DNA from: Polynucleobacter sp. SHI8
GTDB lineage: Bacteria > Pseudomonadota > Gammaproteobacteria > Burkholderiales > Burkholderiaceae
Assembly (NCBI RefSeq): GCF_027944005.1
Contig: NZ_AP027204.1
Coordinates: 2,425,249 to 2,457,248, forward strand
Reading direction: 5' to 3'
DNA: 32,000 nucleotides
Shown: piece after piece, positions 5,639-32,000 of the stretch
Layout: each line of letters opens with the position of its first letter
How positions within the stretch are numbered: position 1 is the stretch's first letter
Program-made: the position numbers and the translations under genes
The notes under the pieces: generated by a model
What the model was told of the DNA's origin: nothing
The model's input: only the letters and a program-made list of their open reading frames with translations
Databases searched by the model: none

Positions 5639-5785
5639 AAATTCTCCGTAAGTTAGGTTTAATTTTTATCTCGTCAGCGCTGATTCGATAGTGTGATTAA
5701 AACATTTACGGAAATTTTTAATAATTGGCTGGATTTTTGCATTTTCCAGCCACCCCTTGACATTTTTAATGTGTGAGACCAAGGA

Positions 5786-6658
5786 ATGGCAGATAAAAAA
5801 AGTGATAAAAAAAGCACTAAAGATAGTAAGTTGACCGTTTTTAATTCGATGCGAGCCGCTGCTTGGGTAAATGATCTCAAGCGTAGAACTGAGGTTGAGA
5901 GTGATAAGGCGTTACTAAAAGCCATTCCAACCATCCAAGATTTGGAAGTTCGGTTTGGACGATACTTATCAGGTATCCATCTTCCCTCTGGAATGATTAG
6001 AAATGCTATTCATGCCTATGCGCCTGTAAAGAAATCACGCTTCGTCTTTGAATTCGGTCCTGAAGATCAAGGGGAGTTCGTATCGCTTTGGATGCTTTTT
6101 CAGGATCGCTATGACGAATTTTGGACGATCATTGAAGATGTCATTCCCCGATTGCCAACAGATCGGGAAGAAGGGCATTATGGACGGATTGATCGCATTG
6201 CAGCCATTTTCTGTGCAACTGATACTTGGGCGGATATTCGCGTTAAACGAGCCTATTCGTTTGAAATGAATAATCCAGTTCAAGTCTATATGAATGAATT
6301 TCAGGTGATGCCTGAATTGCGATTTTTGGCAGCAGTGATCGCTATTTGGCGATTGAGCATGTTAGTGCGGGAAGGGGAGGAAGCGACTGAATATTTGTTA
6401 CATTGCTTATTGACTGGTCCTTATGTGCAGGTTTTAGAAAAACATGGAATTTATGAACATGTTTGCTTTCTGGTTCACGCGTTCGCGGTAAGACATTACT
6501 TGATGCAGGGGCAGACGAGCCTTGCAGCGAAAATTTTTTCTGACATATATCAACCGACACAAAAACGCATGGAAATTCAAAAAAGTGAAAAAAGTAGCGA
6601 TCTACCAGACTCTACAAAGGCTGTTTTTTCGTTTTGGAATTCTTCGGTGCTAAAGTAG
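5786..6658 (+). CDS. Hypothetical protein
   Basis: 290-aa ORF with a Lys-rich N-terminus. It is transcribed divergently from the ParB-methylase gene. I recognised no motif. Confidence 0.55.
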   Translation: MADKKSDKKSTKDSKLTVFNSMRAAAWVNDLKRRTEVESDKALLKAIPTIQDLEVRFGRYLSGIHLPSGMIRNAIHAYAPVKKSRFVFEFGPEDQGEFVSLWMLFQDRYDEFWTIIEDVIPRLPTDREEGHYGRIDRIAAIFCATDTWADIRVKRAYSFEMNNPVQVYMNEFQVMPELRFLAAVIAIWRLSMLVREGEEATEYLLHCLLTGPYVQVLEKHGIYEHVCFLVHAFAVRHYLMQGQTSLAAKIFSDIYQPTQKRMEIQKSEKSSDLPDSTKAVFSFWNSSVLK

Positions 6659-7790
6659 TTTTCAATTTTTTTTGAAGTTCATATTTTTCAATGAGATTTT
6701 TGAATATGCTTTGACCATGCCCGTGTTTTTCTTCAACGGCATTTGCAATTTGTCGTGCAGTCATTTGATGATTATTTGGCTTGTCAACACTGATGCCCAA
6801 ATCAAGTACGCAAGTGAGTAGACACCCATAGCTGACTGTGCATTGCTCATAAGGACGGATCTGGTAAATTTCGCCTTTGGTATCTGCTAACAGATGAGAA
6901 CTATTGCCGTGAAATAATTCCTGTCTTTGATCGTCGTAGATATGGCATAGTTGATTTAAATTGACACCGTATTCTTCGGTCAGCTCAAAGGCATAAATCA
7001 ACGCATTTTCTTTCAATGAGCAGAAGTCATTTTCTACTAACTGCTGCCAAAACCATTGTGTGATATTGAAGCCCTTGCGAATTAGTTCATGCTCTAGTTC
7101 ATCTGCGATATCTTTGGCTAATTCTTCACTATGCAAAAGTGCCGACCTGAAAAATTGCAACAGCACTTCTGGTATGGCAACGTCTTTCCACTTCTCATAA
7201 ATTTCTCTTGCTTTAATAATAGAGTCAGCAATTGCAATGCTGAAATTGCCATGTGCAATGAGTGACTCATTGATTGTTGAAATAGTCTCTTTTGTCATGT
7301 CGGATGGGTGAAATGACAAGGTAGGAATTTCGACCAATGAATACTGTGAAGGCTCACATTCCTCCTTTACAGACTTGAAAAATCCAACCAATTGATCGTC
7401 TACCTTCATGACAGGAATTTGCATTTTCCATATTTCGGCAATGTCACCAAATTGAACATCAGAATTTTGATTCGCAGTGACGGATGCAGAAAACATAGGC
7501 ACGATATGGGAAATAATCCATTCGTATAAAGTACCCAGATGATATTTTATGGAAGCAGGGTGAGAGCCTTGAATTCGCCACTGTTCAATCGTTGCCACTG
7601 GTTCCCCTAACCAATCTGCCAATGCTGTTTCGTTCGTTAGTCGTGCCGATAGTGAAGTCGATGACTTTGGAGAAGATTTCCGTATCACTACTGGGGACAG
7701 CATCTCGAAAGTTGCACCTAGGTGCGCCATACTGAGCTGGGTATCTGGCGATAATTGCTTGAGCTTGAGTAAAAATTCTAGTGGCGTCAT
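6612..7790 (-). CDS. Hypothetical protein with an N-terminal excisionase/AlpA-like HTH segment
   Basis: 392 aa. LTNETALADWLGEPVATIEQWRIQGSHP resembles MerR/AlpA-type HTH_17 segments. It lies directly downstream of the integrase on the same strand. The rest of the protein is unrecognised. Confidence 0.55.
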   Translation of the reverse strand: MTPLEFLLKLKQLSPDTQLSMAHLGATFEMLSPVVIRKSSPKSSTSLSARLTNETALADWLGEPVATIEQWRIQGSHPASIKYHLGTLYEWIISHIVPMFSASVTANQNSDVQFGDIAEIWKMQIPVMKVDDQLVGFFKSVKEECEPSQYSLVEIPTLSFHPSDMTKETISTINESLIAHGNFSIAIADSIIKAREIYEKWKDVAIPEVLLQFFRSALLHSEELAKDIADELEHELIRKGFNITQWFWQQLVENDFCSLKENALIYAFELTEEYGVNLNQLCHIYDDQRQELFHGNSSHLLADTKGEIYQIRPYEQCTVSYGCLLTCVLDLGISVDKPNNHQMTARQIANAVEEKHGHGQSIFKNLIEKYELQKKLKTTLAPKNSKTKKQPL

Positions 7791-7873
7791 AGTAAATTTA
7801 AGTGTGCTTACCGCTTTGGCGGTAAGCTGTAATGTAAAGGTATTAGTGTTCTTTTGCCGATGGATAGATCATT

Positions 7874-9487
7874 TTAAGGAACCATATTTTTTACTAGCCA
7901 TTCATTCCACCAGCCTTTTCGATATCTCAAAGTATCAAAATGAATGAATGGAAAATCTAAAGCCGTGAATGCATCCCTTGCTTGGACATCCGCAGTCGCT
8001 TTACTGCGGTAGTGTTTCGCTTTAATGCCGACTGGTGCATGACCTGTCCACTGGTCAGCACGAACAGCATCAAGATCACTTGTGCCTAATGCGTCAGCCA
8101 CCGTGTCACGGAAACTATGCAGAACCTTAGTGCGTGGAATATGTACGCCGATTTTTTGGAGATAGTTATTCACGTCCCTAGATAAATTGCGTTCTCGTTT
8201 TTCTCTGGAATCCATGGGCAGATTTGGGAAAAGCCGCGTAGCACCCAATAATCGCAAGTCAGCGAGATAATCATCAAGACCAATTTCCCATAATATTGGA
8301 TGCAGCGGTATGGTTCTTTTTGACTGTGCATTTTTGAGTCGCTTAGTTTCTATCTTGTGCGCAATTGAGTCAGGCTTCTTTCTGGGGCGATGTTTAATTG
8401 AAATACTGCGAATACCATTTTCAATAATGATGTCATCTAGATCAAGGCAAGCAATTTCGTTTGCACGAGCACCCGTAAATAAGAGCAGTAAAGGACCCCA
8501 AAACTGATGTGGTCGTTTTGCCTTCATAAAGTTCGCACTATCAAAAATCTTAATCAGTTCTTCTTGCTGAAACGCTTCTGCACCGCCATCAATTTCGCCA
8601 TCAGAGTGGCGGACTGAATCTTCAAATGGATTTGGTTCAAAACAACGTCCAGCTTTAATCGCCCATGAAAAAAATCCAGATACATTGGTTAAGTGGTCGT
8701 TGCATGTTCTAGCTGAAATAGTGTCAGGAGCAGTATCGTTGCCATTCGCATCGAGCATGGTTGGTGGATTGAGCAAAATTTCAGATGCCGTGCCGATTTT
8801 AATATTTCGTTTTTTGGCATGCAGTGGAATATGCGAAAGTGCCTCATTGAAGTCCATGCATTCCCGCCGAGTGAGTTCATGTACCATGCGATGATTGCCA
8901 CCCATTAGAATTCCAAATAATTCCAGGCTTTCTGTGTAGGATTTTTTCGTAGCGGCAGCAATGCCTTTTTTGGAAAGCAAATAGGAATCAAAGGCATCTT
9001 TCAATGTGCTTGGCTTTGTTGGAAGGGAGGGCGCAAATTGAGTAATTTCGGCTTTTAATTTCTTAGCTTCTATTTTGAGTGCTTCAGTTGGTAGCGGAGC
9101 TGGTTGTTCACCACGACTGGCATGCAAGAAGAGGGCGAAGTTTTTTAGTTCTTCTTGGGCGACCTGAGGATTATCGCTCGTCTGAATACGAGCAGCAGAA
9201 ATACTGCCATCTTTCCCGATAGTGAGTCCTTCCACTATCAGTTTTTTAATGCTTTCCGGGTCAAGGCTATCTGGATCAATCGTCATAAGTCGCGCCAATC
9301 TGGTAATCAATGGTAGCATTGTGCCAGAAAGTTGGTAGCCCGTAAGCTTTGCGGTTTTGGGGCAACGGGTAAGCAGGGAGCGATTAAGTTCTGGCTTACC
9401 TAGAATGGTAGCGAGAATTTTTGGAAAAACGATTCGGAAATAAAAAACGCCGTGTCGAGAACGGCGTAGGTGTGAAGCTAATTTCAT
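7874..9487 (-). CDS. int: Tyrosine site-specific integrase
   Basis: Catalytic residues are in order: GARANEI (Arg), HSFRDT (HxxR), GHAPVGIKAKHY (His...Tyr). The N-terminal RRSRHGVFYFR is typical of this integrase class. I prefer the ATG at 9487, preceded by GAGGTG, over the ORF-track start at 9529. Confidence 0.85.
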   Translation of the reverse strand: MKLASHLRRSRHGVFYFRIVFPKILATILGKPELNRSLLTRCPKTAKLTGYQLSGTMLPLITRLARLMTIDPDSLDPESIKKLIVEGLTIGKDGSISAARIQTSDNPQVAQEELKNFALFLHASRGEQPAPLPTEALKIEAKKLKAEITQFAPSLPTKPSTLKDAFDSYLLSKKGIAAATKKSYTESLELFGILMGGNHRMVHELTRRECMDFNEALSHIPLHAKKRNIKIGTASEILLNPPTMLDANGNDTAPDTISARTCNDHLTNVSGFFSWAIKAGRCFEPNPFEDSVRHSDGEIDGGAEAFQQEELIKIFDSANFMKAKRPHQFWGPLLLLFTGARANEIACLDLDDIIIENGIRSISIKHRPRKKPDSIAHKIETKRLKNAQSKRTIPLHPILWEIGLDDYLADLRLLGATRLFPNLPMDSREKRERNLSRDVNNYLQKIGVHIPRTKVLHSFRDTVADALGTSDLDAVRADQWTGHAPVGIKAKHYRSKATADVQARDAFTALDFPFIHFDTLRYRKGWWNEWLVKNMVP

Positions 9488-9577
9488 TGGTATCACCTCA
9501 ATGTGAGGTGGAACACCTGTTTGGAGCACCTGATATTTTGAAGCTTATAAACTTCAATCAGATCAACAACTTAAAAT

Positions 9578-9624
9578 CTTGGTGGCCCGGGGCGGAATCG
9601 AACCACCGACACAAGGATTTTCAA
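9578..9624 (-). repeat. tRNA-Phe(GAA) 3' half, copy 1; att-type repeat, not an intact tRNA
   Basis: The minus strand reads TTGAAAA-TCCTT-GTGTC-GGTGG-TTCGATT-CCGCC-CCGGGCC-A-CCA. That is anticodon loop (GAA), 3' anticodon stem, variable loop, T arm, acceptor 3' strand and CCA. It is near-identical in layout to E. coli tRNA-Phe. No matching 5' half (GGCCCGG..., D arm) follows. It is 47/47 identical to 17538..17584. Confidence 0.7.
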
Positions 9625-9814
9625 ATATCCTCCGATAGACCGCTTTCGCTTTGATTTCAAGGGCTTGAGTCACCAGCCCCGACTTGTCTAAAAATTGTGC
9701 GTCCTTGTGCCGGTCAAATTTGGCAATGAAATCAGAATCTTGCGAGGGGCTATTTTTCCGTGTGTACAGATTGTGTCGCCATACCCTACCAGTCAATCAC
9801 CATAGTGTCTATGA

Positions 9815-9833
9815 ATGTCGTTTAAAACGACAT
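9815..9833. repeat. REP-like palindrome (TGTCG variant)
   Basis: ATGTCGTTT-A-AAACGACAT, 14 nt downstream of the HD-GYP gene stop. Confidence 0.7.
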
Positions 9834-9847
9834 TTCAACTGGCGTCC

Positions 9848-10894
9848 TTAAATTAGCGGTGGGAATGTATACCCATCAACTTTAAATACTTTTAAGCAAG
9901 CGTTAACGACATCAGTATCAAATAGCTTGTCACTACCCATAGCGATTTCTTCTAATGCGGCATCTATACCTTTACCTTTTCTGTAAGGGCGATCAGATGA
10001 CATTGCCTCTACTGTGTCTGCCACACCCAGAATACGAGCCTCCTCACAGACAATATCGCCTTTAATTGCGTTGGGGTAGCCACTGCCATCCAAACGCTCA
10101 TGATGCTGAAGAACTGCTTGAGCAATATTCCAAGGAAAGTGAATATGTTTGAGCATGTCATAGCCAGCTTGAACATGATTCCTAAGCATGGCGACCTCAA
10201 AGTTGCTTAGGGCGATGGGCTTTGTGAGAATTTCTGCGGGAATAGTAATTTTGCCAATATCGTGAACTAAGGCGGCCATACGAATACCTTCAATGGTATG
10301 TATGGGCAAATTCATTTCCGTGGCAATTGCCACAGCCAAATTTGCCACGCGCTTTTGATGTCCGCCCGTATATGGATCGCGAGCAACAATGACATTGGCT
10401 AAAGTGTCAACCATTTCGTTCATAGAAATGTTGACTGAGTGCTGATACTCGAGCAACTCCTTTTCTAGCTTTTTTCTATCTGAGATGTCGCGAATATTAC
10501 ATTGAATAACGCGGTCGCCATTGACGCCATAGGCATTGCTGATAAACTTTACATTAATAATCTCTTCATCTTTTCGTTTTAATGGGAGATCTTCATAGCG
10601 TATGTAGCCCTTGTCTTTGAGCACGGTAAAGGCTGTTAAAGCCGCGGCTTTATCTACCATCGCGCCAATTTCCCACAACTCTTTACCGATGAGCTCATCT
10701 CTTGTAAAGCCCAGTAGGTTAGTAATGAATGGATTAGCGTCTTGAATGACTCCCGTTTGAAAATCAAGTATCAAGATACCATCTTGAGCGGTCTCAAATA
10801 ATCGCCTATAGCGTAGCTCTGATTGTTTGGCTAACTGTTCTTTGTTTAAATCGTTTGTCATCAATATATTTGGTGAAATCAATAAATCCACCAT
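9848..10894 (-). CDS. PAS-domain HD-GYP c-di-GMP phosphodiesterase
   Basis: The N-terminal [16 protein letters not shown]...ANPF is PAS-like. The C-terminal half has HDIGK and [11 protein letters not shown] (HD-GYP signature). Confidence 0.8.
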
Positions 10895-10997
10895 CCTCTT
10901 GATTTCAGTGTATACCCATTAATTCTGATGGTTATAGACTTTTAGTCTATTTAAGAGCTTAATTGAATCAATCTATCTTTTAGATGCGAGGAATATT

Positions 10998-11849
10998 TTG
11001 TACATAGCAATTAGCCTTTACAGCTTGTCTTTACTTTGCCAGGTTCTCGCATCATTAATTAGTCTTTCGTTATTTCGATATTCAGCAAAAGTATATCGTT
11101 TTCCTTGGCTTTTACTCGCTATAGGCTTGGCAATGATGATTGGGCGAAGAATGAATCCCATTCTTCATATATTCGAAACCGATCATTATGATTTAATAGA
11201 CGCCCTCTTATCTCTACTAATTTCTGGTTTTTTATTACTTGGAGTGCTTGGTCTTAGAAAATTACTCCTCAAGTCTGACGATAAACAACTGACACTTGAA
11301 ACTCTTGCTCAATTTGACCCCCTCACCAACAGCTTAAGTCGCACTGAAATTCTTTATCGAGCCTCTGAAGAAATTGATCGATCACGCAGAAATAAACATT
11401 CCTTTGCGCTTTTAGAAATGGACATTGACCATTTTAAAAATGTAAACGATCAGCTTGGTCATCATGTTGGCGATGAAGTCTTAATTAATTTTGTAAGACA
11501 CTCCCAAGAAGCCCTTCGCTCTATCGATTCAGTTGGACGAATTGGTGGAGAAGAATTTCTAATTCTTTTGCCAGAAACAGAAGCCGAGGGAGCCGCTCAA
11601 ATTGCCGAGCGTTTGCGTAAACATATTGCTAACGCAATAAATGATACGAGCGCCCCAATACCAGTAAAAATCACCATTAGTATTGGGGTGACGATTTTTG
11701 AGCCAAATGAAAACCCTAGAATTGCGCGTGGAATAGTGCTCAATGAACTCATGAATAAGGCTGACTTAGCAATGTATCAAGCTAAAAATGAAGGGCGAAA
11801 TCGTATTGCCTTTTGGAGCGCCTCTACCCCCCCCCTTAAGAGGGCATGA
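10998..11849 (+). CDS. Membrane-anchored GGDEF diguanylate cyclase
   Basis: The N-terminal ~95 aa are hydrophobic. The active site is RIGGEEFLILL (GGEEF). NEGRNR lies near the C-terminus. The TTG start is preceded by GAGGAA. Confidence 0.8.
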   Translation: MYIAISLYSLSLLCQVLASLISLSLFRYSAKVYRFPWLLLAIGLAMMIGRRMNPILHIFETDHYDLIDALLSLLISGFLLLGVLGLRKLLLKSDDKQLTLETLAQFDPLTNSLSRTEILYRASEEIDRSRRNKHSFALLEMDIDHFKNVNDQLGHHVGDEVLINFVRHSQEALRSIDSVGRIGGEEFLILLPETEAEGAAQIAERLRKHIANAINDTSAPIPVKITISIGVTIFEPNENPRIARGIVLNELMNKADLAMYQAKNEGRNRIAFWSASTPPLKRA

Positions 11850-17824: not shown

Positions 17825-18190
17825 TTACTTACATGGATACTCTTTTCTAAGAGCATCTGCTACGACAATTCCAACAGGAAACTTATCGAGATTTGCTGAT
17901 GAATTCTTTAGAAACTTTTCAAAAACTGAGTTAGTTATCTCACCAGTCAAGCGTAAATTATTAGGCGGACACAAAAGAGGTTTGTTCCCCAATGTTTGAG
18001 TACCAAAAACGGATGCAAAAAATACACCTTGCCCTATTCCGCCAACATAAGTGGTGACGTATTCTCTAGATACTTCACTCTTATTTTTCAACTCTAAGTA
18101 TCGACCAACCGTAAGCCCCTCGTCAGCAATCGCTGAATTTGAAAATAGTGCCCACAGTATGGAGACTGAATAAAAGAATTTCATTCTCAT
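17825..18190 (-). CDS. Secreted small protein, possibly a Rap1a/Tai4-like periplasmic immunity fold (tentative)
   Basis: The signal peptide is MKFFYSVSILWALFSNSAIA. The pattern LLCPPNNLRLTGEITNSVFEKFLKN...PVGIVVADALRKEYPC resembles the C..P...t..q....yl...P......a..AL...YPC pattern I associate with Rap1a-type proteins. Confidence 0.5.
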   Translation of the reverse strand: MRMKFFYSVSILWALFSNSAIADEGLTVGRYLELKNKSEVSREYVTTYVGGIGQGVFFASVFGTQTLGNKPLLCPPNNLRLTGEITNSVFEKFLKNSSANLDKFPVGIVVADALRKEYPCK

Positions 18191-19691: not shown

Positions 19692-20129
19692 TCAACGGCC
19701 AAAGCCTGCACGTACAGCGCCACTGGCCGCTTCAATCTGGGCATCTAACTCCCCAGCTTCTACGGCGACCTTAATAATCTCCAGCGCTTTAATTAGCTCA
19801 TCTGCAGAATTTACTTCCACAGCAGTCTTGCCTTTAGCAAATTCAATGATCTTTGCGCCATAGCGGATGTTTAGGCAAACCTTGCCATCCATAGCTACGA
19901 ACCACCACTGACGAATACGCTTTTCATGTTCAATGGTTTTACGTGCACCAGTAATGTCTTTAACTGTTTTGAATTTTTTAACAGTAAATGTGCCGCCTTC
20001 TTTGCTGGCTTTAGCTAACTGGATCTGCTCCCAGACTTTGTTAGCTAATTTATTACGACGATGCAGTACTGGCGGAATTGCTGTTGGCTTTTTTGAATTA
20101 ACCATTTTTAAACTGTTTAATGTGCTCAT
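19692..20129 (-). CDS. Hypothetical protein (145 aa)
   Basis: Clean ORF with a good Shine-Dalgarno sequence (AGGAGAA) 5-6 nt upstream of the ATG. The block KRIRQWWFVAMDGKVCLNIRYGAKIIEFAKGKTAVEV...AVEAGELDAQIE looks conserved. I cannot name the family with confidence. Confidence 0.6.
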   Translation of the reverse strand: MSTLNSLKMVNSKKPTAIPPVLHRRNKLANKVWEQIQLAKASKEGGTFTVKKFKTVKDITGARKTIEHEKRIRQWWFVAMDGKVCLNIRYGAKIIEFAKGKTAVEVNSADELIKALEIIKVAVEAGELDAQIEAASGAVRAGFGR

Positions 20130-21455: not shown

Positions 21456-21774
21456 TTTTCACCTCAAATTAAATTTGTTTAAGTAACTATAGCTAATTTT
21501 TATAACAACAGAATAGTTTTAAGCAGAAATCTTTCAAGCTCGCTGGCTTGGGTAGCTGAGCCAAAATTTAAAACGCTTGAAGGTTATTTTAAAAGGTCAT
21601 CAAAATATCGTGGCTAAAATGCCACGATAAATATAAGAGAAGTAGAGAACTCTTATATTTTTGCGTAACCCATTGATAAAAAAGCGATTCTTTTTACACC
21701 ATTTTCGGTTGCCCAAACCGAATCTAAGAAAACATACTGTAACTCTTTATTTAATACATTTTAGGGAGAAACAG

Positions 21775-22341
21775 ATGTCACAAGCTAGAGTTTTAAATCC
21801 ACAAGAACTTCGCAGAGTTTTAGATCACGTTGCTACACGCAGGCACTCAGCACGTAATCGCGCTATGTTGCTACTTACGCACTACGCGGGTATGCGAGTA
21901 GCTGAAGTAGCCGCGCTACGCATAAACGACGTTTTAAACAGCGACAGCACGATTAAGGGTGAAGTACGCTTGATGCCCGATCAAACCAAGGGCAAACACG
22001 CCCGTACTGTTTACTTAAATGAACGCATGCAAAAGGAGCTGGCGCAGTACATCAAAGTACTCAAAATTAAAGATCCAACAAAACCCTTGTTTTACACACA
22101 GAAGCAAGCAGGGTTTTCAGCCAACTCACTTACCCAGTACTTCTTTTATCTTTATCGTGCAGTTGGATTGGAAGGTGCCAGTAGCCATAGCGGTAGACGC
22201 ACATTCTTAACTGGGCTTGCCAATAAAGGCACAGCAATTCATATATTGAAGTCTCTTGCAGGACATAGAAACATCAGTACTACTGCAACTTATCTCTATA
22301 GCAGTCCAGATCAGCTTAAGGCCGCTGTTGAATTGATCTAA
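21775..22341 (+). CDS. Small tyrosine recombinase (catalytic domain only, about 189 aa)
   Basis: The ATG at 21775 is preceded by AGGGAGA. Catalytic residues are GMRVAEV (Arg), TKGKHARTV (Lys), HSGRRT (HxxR), GHRNISTTATYLY (His...Tyr). There is no N-terminal core-binding domain. The ORF-track TTG start at 21661 is unlikely. Confidence 0.75.
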   Translation: MSQARVLNPQELRRVLDHVATRRHSARNRAMLLLTHYAGMRVAEVAALRINDVLNSDSTIKGEVRLMPDQTKGKHARTVYLNERMQKELAQYIKVLKIKDPTKPLFYTQKQAGFSANSLTQYFFYLYRAVGLEGASSHSGRRTFLTGLANKGTAIHILKSLAGHRNISTTATYLYSSPDQLKAAVELI

Positions 22342-24410: not shown

Positions 24411-25130
24411 ATGGGCATTCCCCATTCATATTTGAAAGGAATACAAATGTTAACGAAAGGAAATAATCATGCGCCTCAAACGATTGATGACATCATCTTT
24501 GGAAACGATGAATCTAAATTGCGGATTGAAGATATTGTCTCGGGTGCCGACGCATTACCTCACTGCGGCAAATCAGCCATTCTTTTATACGGAGTCTTCG
24601 GAACAGGCAAAACAACGCTCGCTAAGATGCTACCTAACCACATTGAATACGGCAAAACCAAAGAAGAGTTAGTCTGGCCAGAAGAGTTCATTGCTTGTCA
24701 GCAAGGCTTTAATGGCCCTCAGGTTATGGCAAAGATTGATGCAATCTTGACTAAAAGCTCTTTTAACGTAAGTGGGCTTCACTACATCATTCTTGATGAG
24801 GTGGACAACTTAACTAAGCAGGCTCAGCAAAGTTTGAAGTCAGCATTGAATACGACTCGCGGCGTATTCATATTGACGACAAACAATGTATCGCTACTAG
24901 ATAAGGGCATGCTAGATCGTTGCGTCTTAGTTGAAATGAATGCGGCACATCCAAATGCTTACTTGGATATTGCCAAATCTATTGCTGATGAAGCTGGGGT
25001 CACCTTATCTAATGATGAGTTACTGACAACCATTCAAGCCGCCAATGGATCATTTAGAAACTTGTTTCATAACGTGGGGCGCTTGGCTAGGCGCAAAGGT
25101 CAACAGCCACCTCCTAATATAATTTATTAA
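24411..25130 (+). CDS. AAA+ ATPase, clamp-loader (RFC/DnaX)-like module
   Basis: QTIDDIIFGN is RFC-box-II-like. Walker A is GVFGTGKTT, Walker B is IILDEVD and sensor-1 is FILTTNN. An alternative start at 24447 is also preceded by GAAAGGA. Confidence 0.7.
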   Translation: MGIPHSYLKGIQMLTKGNNHAPQTIDDIIFGNDESKLRIEDIVSGADALPHCGKSAILLYGVFGTGKTTLAKMLPNHIEYGKTKEELVWPEEFIACQQGFNGPQVMAKIDAILTKSSFNVSGLHYIILDEVDNLTKQAQQSLKSALNTTRGVFILTTNNVSLLDKGMLDRCVLVEMNAAHPNAYLDIAKSIADEAGVTLSNDELLTTIQAANGSFRNLFHNVGRLARRKGQQPPPNIIY

Positions 25131-26401
25131 GCCAGCCTATCTGCCGCCATCGTTGCCGTCAATTTGCTGTAATGACGATCAATCATGGCGGCACTATTGC
25201 CCATCTGCTTAGACAGCGTATGAATATCAGTCTTATTCTCCAATAGCTCCAAAGTAGCGTAGGTATGTCTAAGTGAATAGAGTGTTCGCATCTGCCCATC
25301 GTGACTTAATCCCAAACCACTATCTCGCATCAATCGCTTAAAAGCACCGTCAATCCGCATGGGCTGATGACCGTTGGCAAATACGAAGATCAGCTCAGGG
25401 CAACGCGTCTCAAATAGTCGATCAAAGGGAATATCCCACACAGCCCGTTGTCTGCTGTGTAATCGTTTAAGCACATTAACTGCCTTGTGTTTAGCAATCA
25501 GCCAGCGGCCACCAGTCTTGCCATCCACCCATATACGAAGGTACTTCTTATCCCCTTGCGTGTGCCACTCAATATTGTTCCAGCAGATATTCAGTGCCTC
25601 AGTGCCATGCCGCATACCTGTGTATAAAAGCATCTCAATATAGTCACGCAGTAAGGGTCTAGTCTCATGCTCAATCTCTAGTCTGCCTTGCTTGATCCAT
25701 GGCTCCATAAACTCCAACAAGCGATCAATCTCTTCGCGAGTAAATGCTGGGCGGGTTTTACCTTTTTGCCCTCTTGCTGTTAGCTTGGGAATAGCTACTC
25801 GTTCACTGATCCAGCCTTTGCTAATGGCTACCAGCTGTAACTTGGTCCACGCACTGGCAAAGTTCATCAAGGTGCTGGCTCTGGGCACCTTGTTCATCTG
25901 CCTATTACGCCAAACCTCAAACTCATGCACGTCGGTATAAGTTATTTCTTCTAGTCTTTTGTCACCAAAGTAAGGTAGAAAGTATTTCTCAATACAGGTG
26001 ATGTAGCTACCGTACACACTCTTGCCTATACCCACATCCAAGTCCTGCCGCATTGAGTAGAGAGTGGCGTGTGCAATTTCTGCAAACGTGGGCGACTTTT
26101 GTGCAAGCCCCAGTCTTTGGCGAAATCTGGTTTCATCGTAAAGATCGCAAGCCATTCGTACTGCGTGTTCAATACTGGCTTGGCGGGTGGTCTGACGATG
26201 CCATGAGCCATCTTGCAGTCTAAAGCGACAATGCCAAAGTGGACTTCCGGGTCTGCGATGAATAACGACTTCGCCATCACGCAAGTAAAGCTCTGTGGGC
26301 TCGGCGTATTTGAGCTGGCTTAAGGCTGTGGGTTGGGATTCGTGCTGGGGCGAGGAGATTACTTCCAGATGACTTTCAGGTACTTTAATTACCTTGGTCA
26401 C
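25127..26401 (-). CDS. int: Tyrosine site-specific integrase
   Basis: Catalytic residues are YTGMRHGTEAL (Arg), LYSLRHTYAT (HxxR), GNSAAMIDRHYSK (Tyr). The GTG start is uncertain. The 3' end overlaps the ATPase gene by 4 nt (convergent). Confidence 0.85.
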   Translation of the reverse strand: MTKVIKVPESHLEVISSPQHESQPTALSQLKYAEPTELYLRDGEVVIHRRPGSPLWHCRFRLQDGSWHRQTTRQASIEHAVRMACDLYDETRFRQRLGLAQKSPTFAEIAHATLYSMRQDLDVGIGKSVYGSYITCIEKYFLPYFGDKRLEEITYTDVHEFEVWRNRQMNKVPRASTLMNFASAWTKLQLVAISKGWISERVAIPKLTARGQKGKTRPAFTREEIDRLLEFMEPWIKQGRLEIEHETRPLLRDYIEMLLYTGMRHGTEALNICWNNIEWHTQGDKKYLRIWVDGKTGGRWLIAKHKAVNVLKRLHSRQRAVWDIPFDRLFETRCPELIFVFANGHQPMRIDGAFKRLMRDSGLGLSHDGQMRTLYSLRHTYATLELLENKTDIHTLSKQMGNSAAMIDRHYSKLTATMAADRLA

Positions 26402-26476: not shown

Positions 26477-26491
26477 GTCCTTTTAAAGGAC
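26477..26491. repeat. REP-like palindrome
   Basis: GTCCTTTTAAAGGAC, 3 nt downstream of the last gene of the hxs-linked operon. Confidence 0.65.
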
Positions 26492-26493
26492 GC

Positions 26494-26757
26494 TTATTGA
26501 TTAGCAGATCCAAAAAATCCCATTACACCCATAACAAACCCGATGTAATAAAAAAGCCCTGTATTTGGTTGTCCAATAATGTAAACATCATCCAGAAAAA
26601 GCCAGCCCAAGAAGGAAAAAATTACGATGTAGCCATGCCATAGACCCGATAAAAATCCATATGGATCGCCTATTTCTTCAGGGGCGTAGTGATGTGCGCA
26701 TCCAGTTAGTACAAGACTAATAAGGACTATATAAAAAATAGGTTTTAAATATCTCAT
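26494..26757 (-). CDS. Small lipoprotein/membrane protein
   Basis: 87 aa. The lipobox is LVLTGC, followed by two hydrophobic segments. Its start directly abuts the stop of the peroxidase-like gene. Confidence 0.6.
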   Translation of the reverse strand: MRYLKPIFYIVLISLVLTGCAHHYAPEEIGDPYGFLSGLWHGYIVIFSFLGWLFLDDVYIIGQPNTGLFYYIGFVMGVMGFFGSANQ

Positions 26758-27987
26758 CTAAAAAGATAATGTCTTTAAGAAAGCAGTTAGTTGACTTACC
26801 TCTTCTGGGGTTAGATAGTTAACTCTAGTTGTGCTGTCGCTGAATGTAAGTCTTTTAGATAGCTCATATCTATCAAACTGACTTAGCTTGTCTGTTTGCA
26901 CCAAAGACAAAGGGTCATAGTGAGCAATAATTGCTTCTTGAATTGTTGCTACAGATCCAGAATGCCCATATGGCGCGGTCTTTTCTACGTTGTACAGTGG
27001 CGCAGTTCGAAATTTATATAAGTCTTTTGGATTAAATGTCGCGTTATATCTCCCGTAGTCAACTCCAAAACCATTCTTACCAAATCCAAGCTGTGGAAAC
27101 GGTACCGTATAAAACTTGAAATCGCTAAAGTGGGGTCCGTTGTGGCATGTAGAGCAGGCACCTTTGCCATAAAACACTCTGGCACCCTTCAATTCAGGCT
27201 GAGTAAGATCTTCTTTGCCTTGAACAAATCTCTCTAATTTTGTTTGCTTAAGTCTGAATTCGTTGCGAATAAAGGCCGCTATGGCCCTTGCAAAATCAAT
27301 GTACTCTAGCTGGTCAACATTTTTATTAAGTACTTTGGCTAAATTTTGACTTGCTTCTGGCTCAATTTTTATAAGTCTTTGAGATATTGCCTTGTACACT
27401 TCTTTGGATTTATCTACTGACTCGGTTTTGTGATTTTTGACAAACTGATCCTCATCAAGCATCTCTCTAATTTCCACAACCGGTAAATGTATTGCCGTTA
27501 CCAAAGCATCATTAGTAGGCCCCTGCGAACCAAATTGACTAAGCGGCTTTTTCAAAGAAAAGTCCACCCTACCATCCCAGAAAAATACATCAAAACCTTT
27601 GGCACCTCTGCCCCAAAAAGCCAAGGTATTTCTTGGTAGTTGCTTTGCTCCATTAAGCAATCTATCGGGCCCAACCATTGTCTTTCCATCGCCGCCCCCA
27701 ATAGCCGCCGCGTTGGGTATTCCGTCTGCAGAGCCAAATTTGTCTTGATGGCAGGTTCTGCATGAGATATTGCCATTAAGACTTAGCCCCTTATTGCTCT
27801 CAAAAAATTTAACCCCCAATGGTGATAATTTTTCATCGGAATTTCTATATAGCTCGTCTGCGGGCTTAAAGCCAGATTCAATTATTTGGCGCTTAATTAT
27901 TTTTGTTTCAGCATTTTCAATGGCGCTAACATGCTGAGTTAGCACCATCAATGAAAACAGGAGTATTTTATTAATAACGAATTTCAT
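26758..27987 (-). CDS. Di-haem cytochrome c peroxidase / MauG-family protein (periplasmic)
   Basis: The signal peptide is MKFVINKILLFSLMVLTQHVSA. There are two CxxCH haem motifs, CRTCH and CSTCH, at the spacing typical of the CCP/MauG family. Confidence 0.8.
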   Translation of the reverse strand: MKFVINKILLFSLMVLTQHVSAIENAETKIIKRQIIESGFKPADELYRNSDEKLSPLGVKFFESNKGLSLNGNISCRTCHQDKFGSADGIPNAAAIGGGDGKTMVGPDRLLNGAKQLPRNTLAFWGRGAKGFDVFFWDGRVDFSLKKPLSQFGSQGPTNDALVTAIHLPVVEIREMLDEDQFVKNHKTESVDKSKEVYKAISQRLIKIEPEASQNLAKVLNKNVDQLEYIDFARAIAAFIRNEFRLKQTKLERFVQGKEDLTQPELKGARVFYGKGACSTCHNGPHFSDFKFYTVPFPQLGFGKNGFGVDYGRYNATFNPKDLYKFRTAPLYNVEKTAPYGHSGSVATIQEAIIAHYDPLSLVQTDKLSQFDRYELSKRLTFSDSTTRVNYLTPEEVSQLTAFLKTLSF

Positions 27988-28354
27988 GAGTTTTTACAAA
28001 ATTTCTAACATCATTTGATTTTTCTTCAATTACCTCAATACCAATCATTGCAAGACTTTCTTCATTGACACCCAAAATCATCATCTTTTTTCTGAGCTTG
28101 TCATAGTCATCGCAAGTCAACAAACCTACCTCGGCGGAATGTAACTGCCTAATAGACTCTTCAGATTTATCAACATTCACTTTATTTTTTGCAATTAAGT
28201 GATCACGCATAACATTGTCGCAAGCAAATACTAACTTTTTATAGTCTTCCTTATAGATAACCTCAGCCAAATAAGGTGCGGCCATATATTTTGTAGCGAG
28301 CGCAATACAGCTTATAGAGGCAAATACATTCAGAACAATAAGTATTTTTTTCAT
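27971..28354 (-). CDS. Membrane-anchored hypothetical protein
   Basis: I prefer the start MKKILIVLNVFASISCIALA at 28354, one nt after the upstream TGA, over the ORF-track start at 28390. Its 3' end overlaps the peroxidase-like gene by 17 nt. Confidence 0.55.
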   Translation of the reverse strand: MKKILIVLNVFASISCIALATKYMAAPYLAEVIYKEDYKKLVFACDNVMRDHLIAKNKVNVDKSEESIRQLHSAEVGLLTCDDYDKLRKKMMILGVNEESLAMIGIEVIEEKSNDVRNFVKTHEIRY

Positions 28355-28355
28355 T

Positions 28356-28763
28356 TCAACATCCCAAATTTCTTTTAGTCTGCTCATCAATTTGACCAGT
28401 CACCGGAATACTTTTACTCTCCTGAAATTTAATAATTGCCTCAATGTACTTGGCATTAAAAGAAGAATCTAAATCATCAATTGGGTAGCCCAAATCTTTT
28501 AACTTCACTAGGCATTTATCAGAATTAATACCACTTGCAATTTGCCTTTTCTTATTCTCCTGCGCCTCGGTAACTGCTGGCGTGGCAGGTAAAACAAAGG
28601 ATCTTGGTGTGCTTTGTTCATTTCTATCAACATCAACCTCATCTTCATCCTCGTAAACAAGGTGTTGCCTTGTATAAATTTTGTACGAAGAAGAAAGTCC
28701 AACAACTAGAAAAATAATAGTTAACACCGTTATGGCTGTTGTCGATTTCTTTGAAAGTTCCAT
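28356..28763 (-). CDS. Membrane-anchored protein with a C-terminal peptidoglycan-binding (PG_binding_1-like) domain
   Basis: The N-terminal transmembrane segment is AITVLTIIFLVVGL. The C-terminal LKDLGYPIDDLDSSFNAKYIEAIIKFQESKSIPVTGQIDEQTKRNLG fits the LGY...DG.F...T..A...FQ....L..TG..D..T pattern. The gene starts 2 nt after the hxsC stop. Confidence 0.65.
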   Translation of the reverse strand: MELSKKSTTAITVLTIIFLVVGLSSSYKIYTRQHLVYEDEDEVDVDRNEQSTPRSFVLPATPAVTEAQENKKRQIASGINSDKCLVKLKDLGYPIDDLDSSFNAKYIEAIIKFQESKSIPVTGQIDEQTKRNLGC

Positions 28764-28765
28764 AC

Positions 28766-29911
28766 TTATTCTTTAAATGCTCTGATGTGGTCGCTATACC
28801 TATACTTTTTTGAAGATGAAAAGAAGCCGCCACATTCACTTCTTTTTACACAGGAATCGCACTCTTCAACATATTCATTTTTCCAATCACTAATTGATTT
28901 AACGTAATTGGATTTAATATCTTGATTCACCACGCAGAGCTGATGGTTATAGATGGATGTTCTTATTCCGTATGAATTTAGAATTCCTAAAGCCCTACTT
29001 AATGTATCTTTGTACTCATATGGATCTATCCATAATTTATCTAAGTTTGCTCGTGTAAAGCCCATCATTTCCAAGCCCATCAATGCAACATGGTCAACAA
29101 AAATAAGATTTCTAGCAATGAACTCACATGTCTGCACTAAACGATCAATTGTTTGCTTATGGATTACTACCCTAATTTCTACCTTTTGATTGAATCTTTT
29201 TAAATTCAAAATGCCTTGCATGGTTTCATCAAATGCGCCATTGGCTTGAACCACATAATCATGTCTTGCAGGATCATCTGAATATATTGGAATGCCCAAA
29301 AGACAATCGTGGTGATTTACATCGGCATAACGCTTAGCAAATGAGCTATCTTTAAATGTTCTTCCGTTGGTTAAAACATCAATTGCGGTATTTGGTAGTG
29401 CCTTTTTTGTTTTTGTAATCAGCTCAATAAACTGGTCGCCATATAAGGTAGGTTCTCCACCTGTATATCCAATGTTCGCAGTGTCCTTTGGGATTAAATC
29501 AAGCGCCTCAATTGCCTCTTCCATTAGCCACGAGTCATCATGATCTTTTGGTGGTTGAGAGCACATCAAACAATAATGATTACATCGCTCGGTCAGTAAA
29601 AACGTATTGTTAGGGCTTTTCTTTCTAAATATGATGCCGATACGACCAGATGGTGAGATGCGGGCTATATCGCCCTCATCTATGTAGTTCATTTCCTCGG
29701 GTAGCTCTAGATGATTTACCTGACCCAAGTCTTTTGTAGCATCAAAAGTCAAATACGCCCCAAAGCCCTCGGGAGCCGAGCCATTTTCAATTATTAAAGC
29801 CTTATCTTGGCGCTCGCCGATTGGTATCTGAGAATTTTTAGTCAGCGTAAATAATCGACTCCTATCAAGAGTGAAATTTTCGACGACGCCTCGACCGTAT
29901 AACTTAAGCAT
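28766..29911 (-). CDS. hxsC: Radical SAM maturase, HxsC type (His-Xaa-Ser system)
   Basis: The CxxxCxxC motif is ERCNHYCLMCSQ. It is the second rSAM gene, overlapping hxsB by 8 nt. The operon order of precursor, HxsD, rSAM, rSAM matches the described Hxs system. Confidence 0.7.
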   Translation of the reverse strand: MLKLYGRGVVENFTLDRSRLFTLTKNSQIPIGERQDKALIIENGSAPEGFGAYLTFDATKDLGQVNHLELPEEMNYIDEGDIARISPSGRIGIIFRKKSPNNTFLLTERCNHYCLMCSQPPKDHDDSWLMEEAIEALDLIPKDTANIGYTGGEPTLYGDQFIELITKTKKALPNTAIDVLTNGRTFKDSSFAKRYADVNHHDCLLGIPIYSDDPARHDYVVQANGAFDETMQGILNLKRFNQKVEIRVVIHKQTIDRLVQTCEFIARNLIFVDHVALMGLEMMGFTRANLDKLWIDPYEYKDTLSRALGILNSYGIRTSIYNHQLCVVNQDIKSNYVKSISDWKNEYVEECDSCVKRSECGGFFSSSKKYRYSDHIRAFKE

Positions 29912-31361
29912 TTGGTTGAGCCCAATCGGTGAATAACTGTTTCACAAACGAGTCTTCTTCCATTCGTTTAATCAAATATTTGAAGATCTTCATGTTTCTA
30001 TTACAGAATTCAGAGTCTGGCTTTCTACCGACAAAGTCTTTGTATATGCCGTAGTGAAATACCGGATCGGCCCCGCAATAACTTTCAAATGCACAATCTG
30101 TACACATTGGTACGCTATATGCAAAGGATTCTTCTATTGGATCTAGTAAAGCATCGCTGAGAAATATTTGCTCATAGGTATCTTTTAAAACGTGCCCAAT
30201 TTGAAATTTATTCTCACCCATCTCAGCAAGCATTCTGCTCTCATCAGATGCAAACACTTTGCCATCGTAGTTATAGACTACTGCCCCAATTCCAATTCCT
30301 GCTGGGCTCATTAAGTCTACATAACCAGGCTCTGTGCTTGTAAGCATTTTGGAGAGAATGGTTGCCGCATAAAACTCTCTAAATTCTTTGCCTCTGCGGT
30401 TTAACTCAATGATGTACTCAAGACCTTCTACAAAAAATTCGTGCCATTTTTCTGCATCATAGGCGGCATATGTTTTTGTTTTAAGAGCAAAACCGTATGG
30501 TGACAAAGGTCTTAGAAAAATCCCTCCAAACTCTCTTTCAACATATTCATCAATAATTTCTTTAACTCTCCCAAGACTTGCTTTAGTTGTAGTCATGAGC
30601 GCAGAAACAGAATATTTTCCTAAATATCTTCTTGTGGATGCAATTCCCTCAATTGCTTTTTCATAACTATTGCTACCTTTGCGTGGTCTATTGTGGTTAT
30701 GAAGATCTTTAGGCCCATCTAGAGAAGTAGAAATTTGAATTTTGTGTTGTTTACAAAATTCCAATACCTGATCATTAATTAACGCTAAATTTGTTGCTAT
30801 AACGTAGCCAATATTCTTGGTGCCCCTGAGACTTTCTGCACGCTCAACAATATATTTTATGAGAGGAAAATTTAATAACGGCTCGCCACCTTGAAATTCA
30901 ATTTTGATGTTTTGAGCCGGTGCCTTCAAAGCTAAGTCCAACGACTTATCTGCAACCTCTTTGGACATATCAAATGCTACTTTATCGTCCGAAGCTCTTG
31001 AAACCTGACAATACGGGCAACTATGCTCACATCGTAAAGAAACTACAAATATATGTAAGCCAGTGAATTCACTAAGGTTGCTATATTTCGTTCTTAACTT
31101 GATTGCCAATAAATCTTTAGCAATGCTTGTTTTGTCATCCACTAAAAAGTGTCTTGCTCTTAAATTGATATAGTCTGGATCTGATGAGGTTAATTGGTGT
31201 TTAACCAATTTCGATAACTTATCACGCGGAAGAGTCAGATACTCTCCAGCCATATTAGTAACTACATAGCTCTGATCATCTAGAGCCTCAAACCTAAGTG
31301 GAAGAAGCTCATAAGAATGAGTTTTGTTTTTATAGAATTCTATCGGCTGAAACTTACTCAT
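29904..31361 (-). CDS. hxsB: Radical SAM/SPASM maturase, HxsB type (His-Xaa-Ser system)
   Basis: The CxxxCxxC motif is LRCEHSCPYCQ. The C-terminal Cys-rich SPASM-like region is PMCTDCAFESYCGADP...FCNRN. Confidence 0.75.
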   Translation of the reverse strand: MSKFQPIEFYKNKTHSYELLPLRFEALDDQSYVVTNMAGEYLTLPRDKLSKLVKHQLTSSDPDYINLRARHFLVDDKTSIAKDLLAIKLRTKYSNLSEFTGLHIFVVSLRCEHSCPYCQVSRASDDKVAFDMSKEVADKSLDLALKAPAQNIKIEFQGGEPLLNFPLIKYIVERAESLRGTKNIGYVIATNLALINDQVLEFCKQHKIQISTSLDGPKDLHNHNRPRKGSNSYEKAIEGIASTRRYLGKYSVSALMTTTKASLGRVKEIIDEYVEREFGGIFLRPLSPYGFALKTKTYAAYDAEKWHEFFVEGLEYIIELNRRGKEFREFYAATILSKMLTSTEPGYVDLMSPAGIGIGAVVYNYDGKVFASDESRMLAEMGENKFQIGHVLKDTYEQIFLSDALLDPIEESFAYSVPMCTDCAFESYCGADPVFHYGIYKDFVGRKPDSEFCNRNMKIFKYLIKRMEEDSFVKQLFTDWAQPNA

Positions 31362-31653
31362 CCTTTATCAGCCCTGCCTTCGAGAAGGTGTGGGCAAGAA
31401 TGAGGTTTCTTACGCCTTCAGTTTCTCTCTTGATTGATTCCCGAAGATCTTGATCTAATACTTCTTTTTTAAATTCATCGACAAGTCTTGCCGCTTGAGC
31501 ATCAGTTGATTTATCTGGGAACTTTATGAAACATGAATATGAAGTCCCGTTTTCTGAAATTACCGCCGAAAACTTATCGATAAATCTATAAGCGGCTTTT
31601 TTAATTGCTTCTGCAGAATAAATTGCTTTATCAAAGAAAACTTGCAATTCCAT
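31354..31653 (-). CDS. hxsD: His-Xaa-Ser system protein HxsD
   Basis: 99 aa. VLDQDLRE matches the LLNDYxLRE signature that names the HxsD family. The gene overlaps hxsB by 8 nt. Confidence 0.65.
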   Translation of the reverse strand: MELQVFFDKAIYSAEAIKKAAYRFIDKFSAVISENGTSYSCFIKFPDKSTDAQAARLVDEFKKEVLDQDLRESIKRETEGVRNLILAHTFSKAGLIKDE

Positions 31654-31697: not shown

Positions 31698-32000
31698 TTA
31701 AATGGTTTCTGTTCTTGGGTCTTCTGAGTGACCAGAACGATGTGAACGATGGGAGGAATGAGAGGAATGAGAGTAGTGATCTGCGAAAATAACCCCAGAT
31801 TCGCTCTTTTTCATCAATAAACGATGCATTTCATCATTCTTTTGATAATCCACAACATGGGTAGTAACCCCATCTAGCTTGTTCACAGCCTTTAAATCAT
31901 CAGAAGCTGATTTTTGATCTTGTTTCTCAGTTACAGGAGCAGAAATAGCATTTGCGTGTGAGCTAAACAATGATGCTGTTGCAACACCCACAGGAATCAG
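31698..32000 (-). CDS. hxsA: His-Xaa-Ser repeat precursor protein HxsA (N-terminus outside the window)
   Basis: The C-terminus is HYS-HSS-HSS-HRS-HRS-G-HS followed by EDPRTETI. The reading frame stays open to position 32000 (...LIPVGVATASLFSSHANA|ISAP), which looks like a Sec signal peptide with an A-x-A cleavage site. Confidence 0.75.
   Translation of the reverse strand: MIPVGVATASLFSSHANAISAPVTEKQDQKSASDDLKAVNKLDGVTTHVVDYQKNDEMHRLLMKKSESGVIFADHYSHSSHSSHRSHRSGHSEDPRTETI

Follow-up and report, generated by a model that had tools for sequence, protein, structure and literature searches.

What role does a secreted di-haem enzyme, together with its immediate neighbours, play at the 3' end of a His-Xaa-Ser (HXS) gene cluster? 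The question is raised by a 32,000-nt stretch of DNA from Polynucleobacter sp. SHI8 (hereafter the window), in which an hxs cluster and four further open reading frames (ORFs) downstream of it all lie on the minus strand. The four-gene HXS of E. coli blocks the entry of phage DNA (PMC13128918; Li et al., Nat Commun 2026); in that system, HxsB, HxsC and HxsD mature HxsA in the cytoplasm, and HxsA, which acts in the periplasm and must bind peptidoglycan (PG), needs its signal peptide, its repeats and its PG-binding domain (PMC13128918). We found that the window contains an HxsA2-type HXS, hxsA2-hxsD-hxsB-hxsC, with a three-gene periplasmic module at its 3' end. We consider it moderately probable that this locus is an HXS-type defence with an extra periplasmic arm, in which the effector is split between two proteins and a membrane protein of the TIGR03982 family would act, paired with the di-haem enzyme, on a wall-anchored protein bearing a conserved motif.

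The components that mark an HXS were all present above the cut-offs of their models, namely an adjacent HxsB and HxsC pair, HxsD and a secreted HxS-repeat protein. The hxsA2 gene (31698..32000) matched NF038296 with 63.1 bits against a cut-off of 48, and its start codon falls outside the window by about 15 nt. The full-length protein was read from ORF 2111-2428 of L046, a contig that reaches past the window (surveyed loci are cited by such L numbers where they need to be told apart). It has 105 amino acids (aa), begins with the Sec-type signal peptide MKKKFLIPVGVATASLFSSHANA|IS and carries C-terminal His-Xaa-Ser repeats, HYSHSSHSSHRSHRSGHS, which were read directly. A preliminary description made from the window sequence had tentatively assigned a signal peptide to HxsA; the signal peptide is present, but it is visible only beyond the window end, in L046. 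The hxsD gene (31354..31653) matched TIGR03976 (73.5 bits, cut-off 50) and is listed as PF27806 in the L046 gene table, while hxsB (29904..31361) encodes a radical S-adenosylmethionine (SAM)/SPASM maturase (TIGR03978, 599 bits, cut-off 370) and hxsC (28766..29911) a radical SAM maturase (TIGR03977, 413 bits, cut-off 268). Consecutive genes overlap by 8 nt at both the hxsD/hxsB and the hxsB/hxsC junction. The HxS repeats form the extreme C-terminus in all HxsA2 proteins, and the window copy has the additional tail GHSEDPRTETI. Two hxsA2 copies, in tandem or flanking, were observed in some HxsA2-type loci (L005, L006, L054-L056, L060 and L086).

Four ORFs follow hxsC on the same strand. The first (28356..28763) encodes a 135-aa protein, here called PG135, with an N-terminal hydrophobic anchor and a PG_binding_1 domain (PF01471, 30.5 bits, cut-off 23). 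It is followed by a gene (27971..28354) for a 127-aa 'His-Xaa-Ser system protein' of TIGR03982/PF27798 (TIGR03982, 106 bits, cut-off 40), by a gene (26758..27987) for a 409-aa secreted di-haem c-type protein that matched TIGR03981, 'His-Xaa-Ser system-associated MauG-like protein', and CCP_MauG, and by the last gene of the unit (26494..26757), which encodes an 87-aa lipoprotein-type membrane protein with the lipobox LTGC. The preliminary description had reported these four minus-strand ORFs with 2-nt, 1-nt, overlapping and 0-nt junctions, and every one of them was confirmed where it had been placed. The hxsC TAA (28766-28768) is separated by 2 nt from the PG135 ATG (28763), and the PG135 TGA (28356-28358) by 1 nt from the ATG of the TIGR03982 gene (28354); the TAA of the latter (27971-27973) and the ATG of the 409-aa ORF (27987) overlap by 17 nt, and 0 nt lie between the 409-aa TAG (26758-26760) and the 87-aa ATG (26757). 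The longest ORF of the TIGR03982 gene starts at TTG 28390 and has 139 aa; the start at ATG 28354 gives 127 aa and agrees with an alignment of 21 homologues of 127-133 aa. On the minus strand of the hxsC-PG135 interval, no terminator-like site was found, and promoter-like matches were not above chance (10 against 16.4 expected). A palindromic hairpin, GTCCTTTAAAAGGAC (26477..26491), stands 2 nt past the stop codon of the 87-aa gene and is likely the end of the transcription unit.

The linkage of these genes to hxs was surveyed from both ends. On the di-haem side, 45 genome-collection loci were examined, and those whose orthologue is full-length and is preceded by 3.5 kb or more of sequence were counted; hxsC and the TIGR03982 gene adjoin the di-haem gene in 38/38 of the counted loci, and the exceptions among the 45 were truncated contigs, a fragment of 160 aa (L042) and an outgroup with 30% identity (L045). 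The trio of PG-binding, TIGR03982 and di-haem genes co-occurs with hxsBC across at least eight phyla. Taxa with the di-haem locus include Beta- and Alphaproteobacteria, Flavobacteriales, Nitrospirota, Binatia, Eremiobacterota, Limisphaerales and Vicinamibacterales (Pseudomonadota, Bacteroidota, Verrucomicrobiota and Acidobacteriota). On the HxsC side, 37 of 80 metagenome loci extend 2.2 kb or more past hxsC; eight of these 37 contain the full trio, and 29 contain none of the three genes and have heterogeneous neighbours there, which indicates that the trio is an accessory module of a subset of loci. Sampling from PG135 gave the same seven genes, A2-D-B-C-PG-TIGR03982-MauG-like, in every context read. 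When HxsC proteins were clustered by identity, the loci with the module were concentrated in one sub-clade of the HxsA2-type lineage, and others were found in two deeper canonical-HxsA lineages. These surveys showed the trio to be an all-or-none accessory module that is confined to hxs loci, is present in only a subset of them and is inherited as one unit. In an Eremiobacterota metagenome-assembled genome (L044:6100-11200), numerous short ORFs take the place of intact hxsB, hxsC and di-haem genes, and in L007:6527-9132 hxsB and hxsC each consist of two pieces; either the systems have decayed or the assemblies contain frameshifts.

The gene association itself was curated years ago and is thus not new. 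NCBIfam and Pfam names and RefSeq annotation already tie TIGR03981 and TIGR03982 proteins to Hxs, and PGAP annotates hxsB-hxsC-hxsA-TIGR03982-MauG-like on Tritonibacter and Thioclava plasmids. The preliminary description had taken the association to be undescribed, which the family names and the RefSeq annotation contradict, and had drawn a single eight-gene architecture, which was not upheld: the trio is missing in 29/37 HxsC-side loci, and the lipoprotein gene occurs in only a few Polynucleobacter loci. Its view that the linkage to hxs exceeds chance holds for three of the four genes, as evident from the 38/38 adjacency, the spread over at least eight phyla and the all-or-none presence. It had also proposed surveying how often PG-binding and di-haem genes co-occur beside hxsB and hxsC; they do so in 8/37 loci, and chance adjacency is refuted for the trio, while the other 29 loci are without it.

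Comparison with the E. coli HXS, hxsD-hxsB-hxsC-hxsA (PMC13128918), revealed HxsB, HxsC and HxsD orthologues in both, as well as a secreted protein with 5-6 His-Xaa-Ser repeats, a PG_binding_1 domain, which is needed in the E. coli periplasm, and a mobile context. In contrast to the E. coli system, the window has the order A2-D-B-C, adds three conserved genes for predicted periplasmic or membrane proteins, including the di-haem enzyme, and carries the repeats and the PG domain on separate proteins. No PG-binding domain of the kind that the E. coli HxsA joins to its repeats was found on HxsA2; the domain sits on PG135, which gave no match to the canonical HxsA model TIGR03979 at E<=0.01. Canonical HxsA (TIGR03979) occupies the position of PG135, from hxsC to the TIGR03982 gene, in alphaproteobacterial, Nitrospirales, Binatia and Vicinamibacterales di-haem loci and on the annotated plasmids, and the HxsA of those di-haem loci holds a signal peptide, HxS repeats, a linker and the PG-binding domain on one protein. 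The recognition of PG135 as an HxsA relative without His-Xaa-Ser repeats, the repeats coming from HxsA2 upstream, appears to be new. The window clade represents a fission of the HxsA domains, with the signal peptide and repeats on HxsA2 and the PG domain on PG135. The plasmids of Tritonibacter scottomollicae (NZ_CP136707.1) and Thioclava (NZ_CP149519.1) share with the window a TIGR03982 and TIGR03981 pair directly after the PG-binding gene, likewise with overlapping junctions, and an RN..STP..LP motif upstream of the PG-binding domain. They differ from it in having a single canonical HxsA (TIGR03979) with repeats, motif and PG domain, no annotated hxsD or hxsA2, and an HxsC that is only 26-33% identical to that of the window.

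The best-conserved segment of the PG135 family is a linker, RNE(R/Q)STPRSF(V/I)LPATPA, and not the PG domain. In the window, it reads RNEQSTPRSFVLPATPAV (residues 47-64; 28572..28625, minus strand) and lies between the membrane anchor and the PG-binding domain; alignment of 16 orthologues revealed that R47, N48, S51, T52, P53, L58, P59 and P62 are invariant. The HxsA proteins of di-haem loci carry this RNExSTPxSxLPxxPA motif too. With the strict pattern RN..ST[PS].{2,4}[VIL]LP, it was found in 43 of 49 di-haem loci, in exactly one ORF each and always in the gene upstream of TIGR03982, and the remaining six keep a degenerate STPPxxxLPxSPA. Among 34 loci without the di-haem gene, which include the otherwise closely similar HxsA of Mesorhizobium, Agrobacterium, Sinorhizobium and Klebsiella, no match to the strict pattern was found in any reading frame. 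Confinement of the motif to loci with the di-haem gene, as judged from these sequences, appears to be new, and we infer that the motif may be the element by which the TIGR03982/di-haem pair engages the wall-anchored protein. No difference was seen when HxsA2 was compared between loci with and without the di-haem gene. In L012, L014, L016 and L018 (approximately 5600-11200), hxsA-hxsC-hxsB lie on one strand and are divergent from PG-protein-TIGR03982-MauG-like; there, the RNExSTP motif is on the separate PG protein, and the full HxsA is without it.

The 409-aa protein has a Sec-type signal peptide (...HVSA|IE) and is 100% identical to a Polynucleobacter sp. SHI8 protein whose UniRef name is His-Xaa-Ser system-associated MauG-like protein. 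It scored 342 bits against TIGR03981, a marginal result with respect to the cut-off of 340, and 59.4 bits against CCP_MauG. Two CxxCH haem motifs were read from the sequence, C76-R-T-C-H80 (27748..27762, minus strand) and C278-S-T-C-H282 (27142..27156, minus strand), and C76-H80 and C278-H282 are invariant in 59/59 relatives. W137, the Trp of FFWDG, is conserved in 57/59 relatives, and P169 and E175 in 59/59. The models of the characterised enzymes were not reached: the protein scored 49.9 bits against the MauG model TIGR03791 (cut-off 443.85), 80.7 bits against the MbnH model TIGR04039 (cut-off 362.85) and 15.2 bits against NF040606 (cut-off 150), the model for bacterial cytochrome c peroxidases (CCPs). 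'MauG-like' is therefore used here as a name and not as a demonstrated mechanism.

Bacterial CCPs are Met-His ligated, and MauG has a Tyr-His ligated, six-coordinate haem (PMC6405878). In the window protein, the candidate sixth ligand of the second haem is His356 (codon 26920..26922, minus strand), which aligned without gaps with the Met of CCPs 2c1u ('KIMG') and 3o5c ('NTMAD') and also with a Tyr of MbnH 6e1c; by offset, His356 corresponds to Met275, and H282 to His201, of the P. aeruginosa CCP 1eb7. Neither the Met-His ligation of bacterial CCPs nor the Tyr-His ligation of MauG was found, His356 standing in their place as read by alignment, with the equivalence to the MauG Tyr deduced. Residue 356 is His in 58/59 relatives, including the second paralogues described below and a Phaeobacter relative outside hxs, and only the outgroup L045 has Tyr. 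His356 would thus be a signature of the 'MauG-like' family that appears new, and because it stands at the Met position of CCPs and the Tyr position of MbnH in 58 of 59 relatives, the TIGR03981 family looks like a distinct His/His class, unlike the Met/His or Tyr/His enzymes.

Upon comparison with MauG, which acts on the methylamine dehydrogenase precursor preMADH in tryptophan tryptophylquinone biogenesis, we found that both are periplasmic di-haem c-type proteins of the PF03150 superfamily, are encoded beside a protein open to their action and have a conserved inter-haem Trp (W137 here). The window enzyme differs from MauG in that it has His and not Tyr as the predicted sixth ligand, no mau genes nearby and an insertion of approximately 60 residues in the N-terminal domain; no mau-type families were found among the operon genes or the window ORFs scanned by Pfam, a scan that covered part of the ORFs. 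MbnH genes are found in methanobactin operons. MbnH (PDB 6e1c), a di-haem enzyme that modifies its partner protein MbnP, matched the window di-haem protein with an E-value of 1.5e-17, and the two loci share the arrangement of an enzyme with an adjacent small partner. The window partner, in contrast, is the helical TIGR03982 protein, which is unrelated to MbnP, and neither a TonB-dependent transporter nor a copper context is present.

The TIGR03982 protein has one N-terminal transmembrane helix followed by a predicted periplasmic helical bundle, and C45 and C81 are invariant. Its AlphaFold2 (AF2) model was all helical, with a predicted local distance difference test (pLDDT) score of 88.8, and a Foldseek search of this model against the PDB revealed no meaningful fold match (best E 0.66). 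The 17-nt overlap between the TIGR03982 and di-haem genes recurs in many phyla, and in L008:11305-12942 the TIGR03982 and MauG-like proteins are fused in a single 545-aa protein. A second, more divergent TIGR03982-like and MauG-like pair was observed right after the first in L009 (11218-11577 and downstream), L038:11260-13037, L041:6589-8345 and L141:9126-10900, and in fused form in L008.

By analogy to the E. coli HXS, maturation of the secreted HxS-repeat protein by HxsB, HxsC and HxsD would take place in the cytoplasm. On the periplasmic side, the TIGR03982/di-haem pair may then dock on, or oxidatively modify, the motif-bearing wall-anchored protein, and this docking or modification would assemble or activate a wall-associated barrier to the entry of phage DNA. 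In canonical di-haem loci, the repeats, the motif and the PG domain would serve this scheme on one HxsA, and here they would be divided between HxsA2 and PG135. The di-haem enzyme could modify the motif protein, could cross-link the split effector or could serve only in electron transfer or sensing. As a more speculative extension, and one that we think doubtful, TIGR03981 would constitute a third ligand class and would perform with TIGR03982 a new periplasmic modification of the RNExSTPxSxLPxxPA segment, for example a cross-link to the radical SAM-matured HxS-repeat protein or to the cell wall, giving a second, haem-dependent maturation of the anti-phage barrier.

Several observations weigh against a periplasmic arm of this kind. 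The E. coli HXS, the only one in which a block to phage DNA entry has been demonstrated, functions with four genes and without a haem protein, and haem proteins are unmentioned in the paper that describes it (PMC13128918); more than 99.8% of the systems in the published survey have four genes, in a data set made up mostly of enterobacteria (PMC13128918). PADLOC 2023 returned no model for the operon proteins, only a generic radical SAM similarity to pVip. The motif has no conserved Trp or Tyr, the residues targeted by MauG and MbnH, and its association with the di-haem gene (Fisher's exact p = 1.7e-17) was calculated with a statistic that ignores shared ancestry. The AF2 model of the di-haem protein, built from a 22-sequence alignment, had a pLDDT of 54 and was too poor for a fold search or ligand geometry, so the ligand assignment rests on sequence alignments.

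Other readings of the locus were weighed against the same evidence. That four unrelated envelope genes merely happen to follow hxsC, the di-haem protein being for example a periplasmic peroxidase that detoxifies H2O2, might be suspected from the 29/37 HxsC-side hxs loci that lack the trio and from a 30%-identical relative that lies among sugar-metabolism genes on Phaeobacter plasmids; however, the 38/38 adjacency on the di-haem side across at least eight phyla, by which the survey refutes this reading for the trio, the all-or-none presence, the conserved overlapping junctions and the curated family names that already carry the association make it highly improbable. A pathway for a ribosomally synthesised and post-translationally modified peptide (RiPP) is also quite unlikely, though less so. 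In such a route, which was the main idea of the preliminary description, HxsA2 would be a precursor that is modified by the radical SAM enzymes and then oxidised by the periplasmic MauG-like enzyme to give a small His-rich cofactor or metallophore, consistent with HxsB being a SPASM-type peptide maturase closest to RiPP maturases, with the short (105 aa) and His-rich HxsA2, and with the di-haem enzyme MbnH (PDB 6e1c) being the best single-sequence PDB match. The product of the E. coli HXS, in contrast, is a protein effector that stays periplasmic, depends on a PG-binding domain and keeps phage DNA from entering (PMC13128918). A PG-binding domain is, moreover, always part of the module, and the surroundings are mobile and defence-island-like. 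No exporter, TonB receptor, leader protease or metal-uptake gene was conserved in the 38 and 37 loci of the two surveys, which makes the biosynthesis of a cofactor or metallophore unlikely.

Less easily set aside, yet still improbable in our judgement, is a purely structural or regulatory trio, in which the PG protein and TIGR03982 would tether the effector at the inner membrane and wall and the di-haem protein would gate the system, either by sensing redox state or peroxide or as a partner in electron transfer. A His sixth ligand would predict a His/His haem, typical of electron transfer and not of MauG-type bis-Fe(IV) chemistry; the motif is without oxidisable aromatic residues, and TIGR03982 forms a simple, membrane-anchored helical bundle. 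The first CxxCH domain, however, retains features of the peroxidatic domain of the superfamily (W137 in 57/59 relatives, P169 and E175 in 59/59), and the loci share no conserved sensor output domain or regulator. The defence with a periplasmic arm is accordingly the reading we favour, and the biochemical proposals of the preliminary description agree with it in part. The two-compartment route proposed there fits as far as the division between radical SAM steps in the cytoplasm and later steps in the periplasm is concerned, which agrees with the predicted topologies and with the E. coli HXS (PMC13128918), but its MauG-type chemistry is not supported, as the protein fails the MauG, MbnH and CCP cut-offs and has His at the ligand position. 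Of the products considered there, a cofactor, a metallophore or a wall-associated factor, only the last fits with the anti-phage, wall-anchored periplasmic effector reported in 2026.

The 87-aa protein at the end of the unit has its lipobox LTGC at residues 17-20 and the motifs GFxSGLWHG and PNTG; the lipobox Cys is invariant in 22/22 family members, and lipidation is predicted. No match to curated families was found; the protein belongs to a large family of small lipoproteins, of which 578 representatives were retrieved at E<=1e-3 and which shares GFxxGxWHG and PNTG motifs. The gene follows the di-haem gene in 0/45 genome loci and in two of the 80 metagenome loci, L049 and L050. In Polynucleobacter sp. 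39-45-136 (L139/L140), it stands directly after the di-haem gene (TAAATG), with the 0-nt junction kept; identities of the L139 proteins to those of the window are 83% for the 87-aa protein, 71% for the di-haem protein and 42% for a nearby integrase, and the 87-aa genes differ at 30 synonymous and 15 non-synonymous codons. The possibility that the ORF is not a gene, raised by its being uncalled in L046 and absent from records, was rejected in view of the 578-member family, the 83%-identical L139 copy and the synonymous excess. The 87-aa gene is a real, constrained and co-transcribed gene, a lineage-specific addition and not a core part of the system.

Whether this gene belongs functionally to Hxs is a separate matter. 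That the lipoprotein, and it only, is cargo of an integrating element, for instance a lipoprotein of the superinfection-exclusion type, and has no part in Hxs, is a serious possibility to which we assign a little less than an even chance. The gene is missing from every di-haem locus outside a few Polynucleobacter loci, and in the window it sits between the di-haem gene and an integrase. Relatives were observed elsewhere on mobile DNA: one (L133:227-2226) is less than 500 nt from a phage-type integrase and upstream of a Toprim primase, and another, on a JGI contig, lies among small genes that form a phage-like cluster and include one for an HNH nuclease, which suggests that the family travels on mobile elements. 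Against cargo, L139 and L140 keep the 0-nt junction to the di-haem gene and the 83% identity, whereas the integrase there is only 42% identical and is separated by another gene, and the hairpin is placed after the lipoprotein gene and not after the di-haem gene. A mobile-element origin, possibly of exclusion type, is as likely as an Hxs role.

The hairpin belongs to a repeated element. The palindromic 15-mer GTCCTTTAAAAGGAC or its variant GTCGTTTAAAACGAC was found at 11 window sites against 0.12 expected (9817, 14149, 14195, 15081, 17387, 17433, 17806, 19671, 22727, 23658 and 26477), nearly all just past gene ends, and in L139 and L049 a GTCCTTTAAAAGGAC-type hairpin also lies 3' of the 87-aa gene; the palindrome may be a terminator-like element peculiar to this genome, or a repetitive extragenic palindromic (REP)- or uptake-type element. 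Upstream of hxsA2, approximately 130 nt past the window end, L046:1829-1998 contains a 49-aa hydrophobic ORF whose tail and hairpin match the 3' end and hairpin of the 87-aa gene with 71% identity over 68 nt. This ORF may be a remnant of an 87-aa-related gene, or the likeness may come from the repeated hairpin by itself. A 68-nt direct repeat (71% identical), which flanks the hxs cluster in L046, was considered as a pair of att sites and rejected, as its core is the palindrome that recurs at 11 window sites and the segment bounded by the repeats does not include the integrase.

The hxs locus adjoins a gene for a 424-aa tyrosine integrase among other mobile-element genes. The window contains three tyrosine integrases, an ArdA anti-restriction protein, a replicase/PriCT primase and an MT-A70 methyltransferase; integrase and mobile-element genes occupy 7874-9529, 21661-22341 and 25127-26401, and also 2054-2641, 2830-3789 and 4388-5638. 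The region looks like stacked integrative elements, and no tRNA gene that could serve as an integration site was found in the window. Close homologues of the 424-aa integrase were observed right downstream of the di-haem gene in L049:7522-8796, L050:7494-8666 and L052:3393-4664; in the last of these loci, the 87-aa gene is missing and HxsC is only 63% identical to that of the window. One family of integrative elements may carry the hxs cluster at its integrase end. At 17825-18190 and 19692-20129, in the island between integrases, lie genes for a Rap1a-type immunity protein and a DUF6641 protein; Rap1a-type immunity is linked to type VI secretion. The plasmid-borne hxs examples lie among toxin-antitoxin and DUF3800 genes.

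HXS was recognised as an envelope-level stop to phage DNA only in 2026, and its unusual features include a +8 Da change and an odd route of export. The points that appear new here are the split HxsA, the di-haem-linked motif and the His356 signature, the last of which flags a 'MauG-like' clade with a predicted haem ligation unlike that of both characterised classes. A widespread subtype that has its own periplasmic di-haem enzyme, together with a membrane partner and a motif that is both diagnostic and substrate-like, offers concrete handles on the modified residue, on the oxidant of the enzyme and on whether the repeats and the wall anchor can work on separate proteins.

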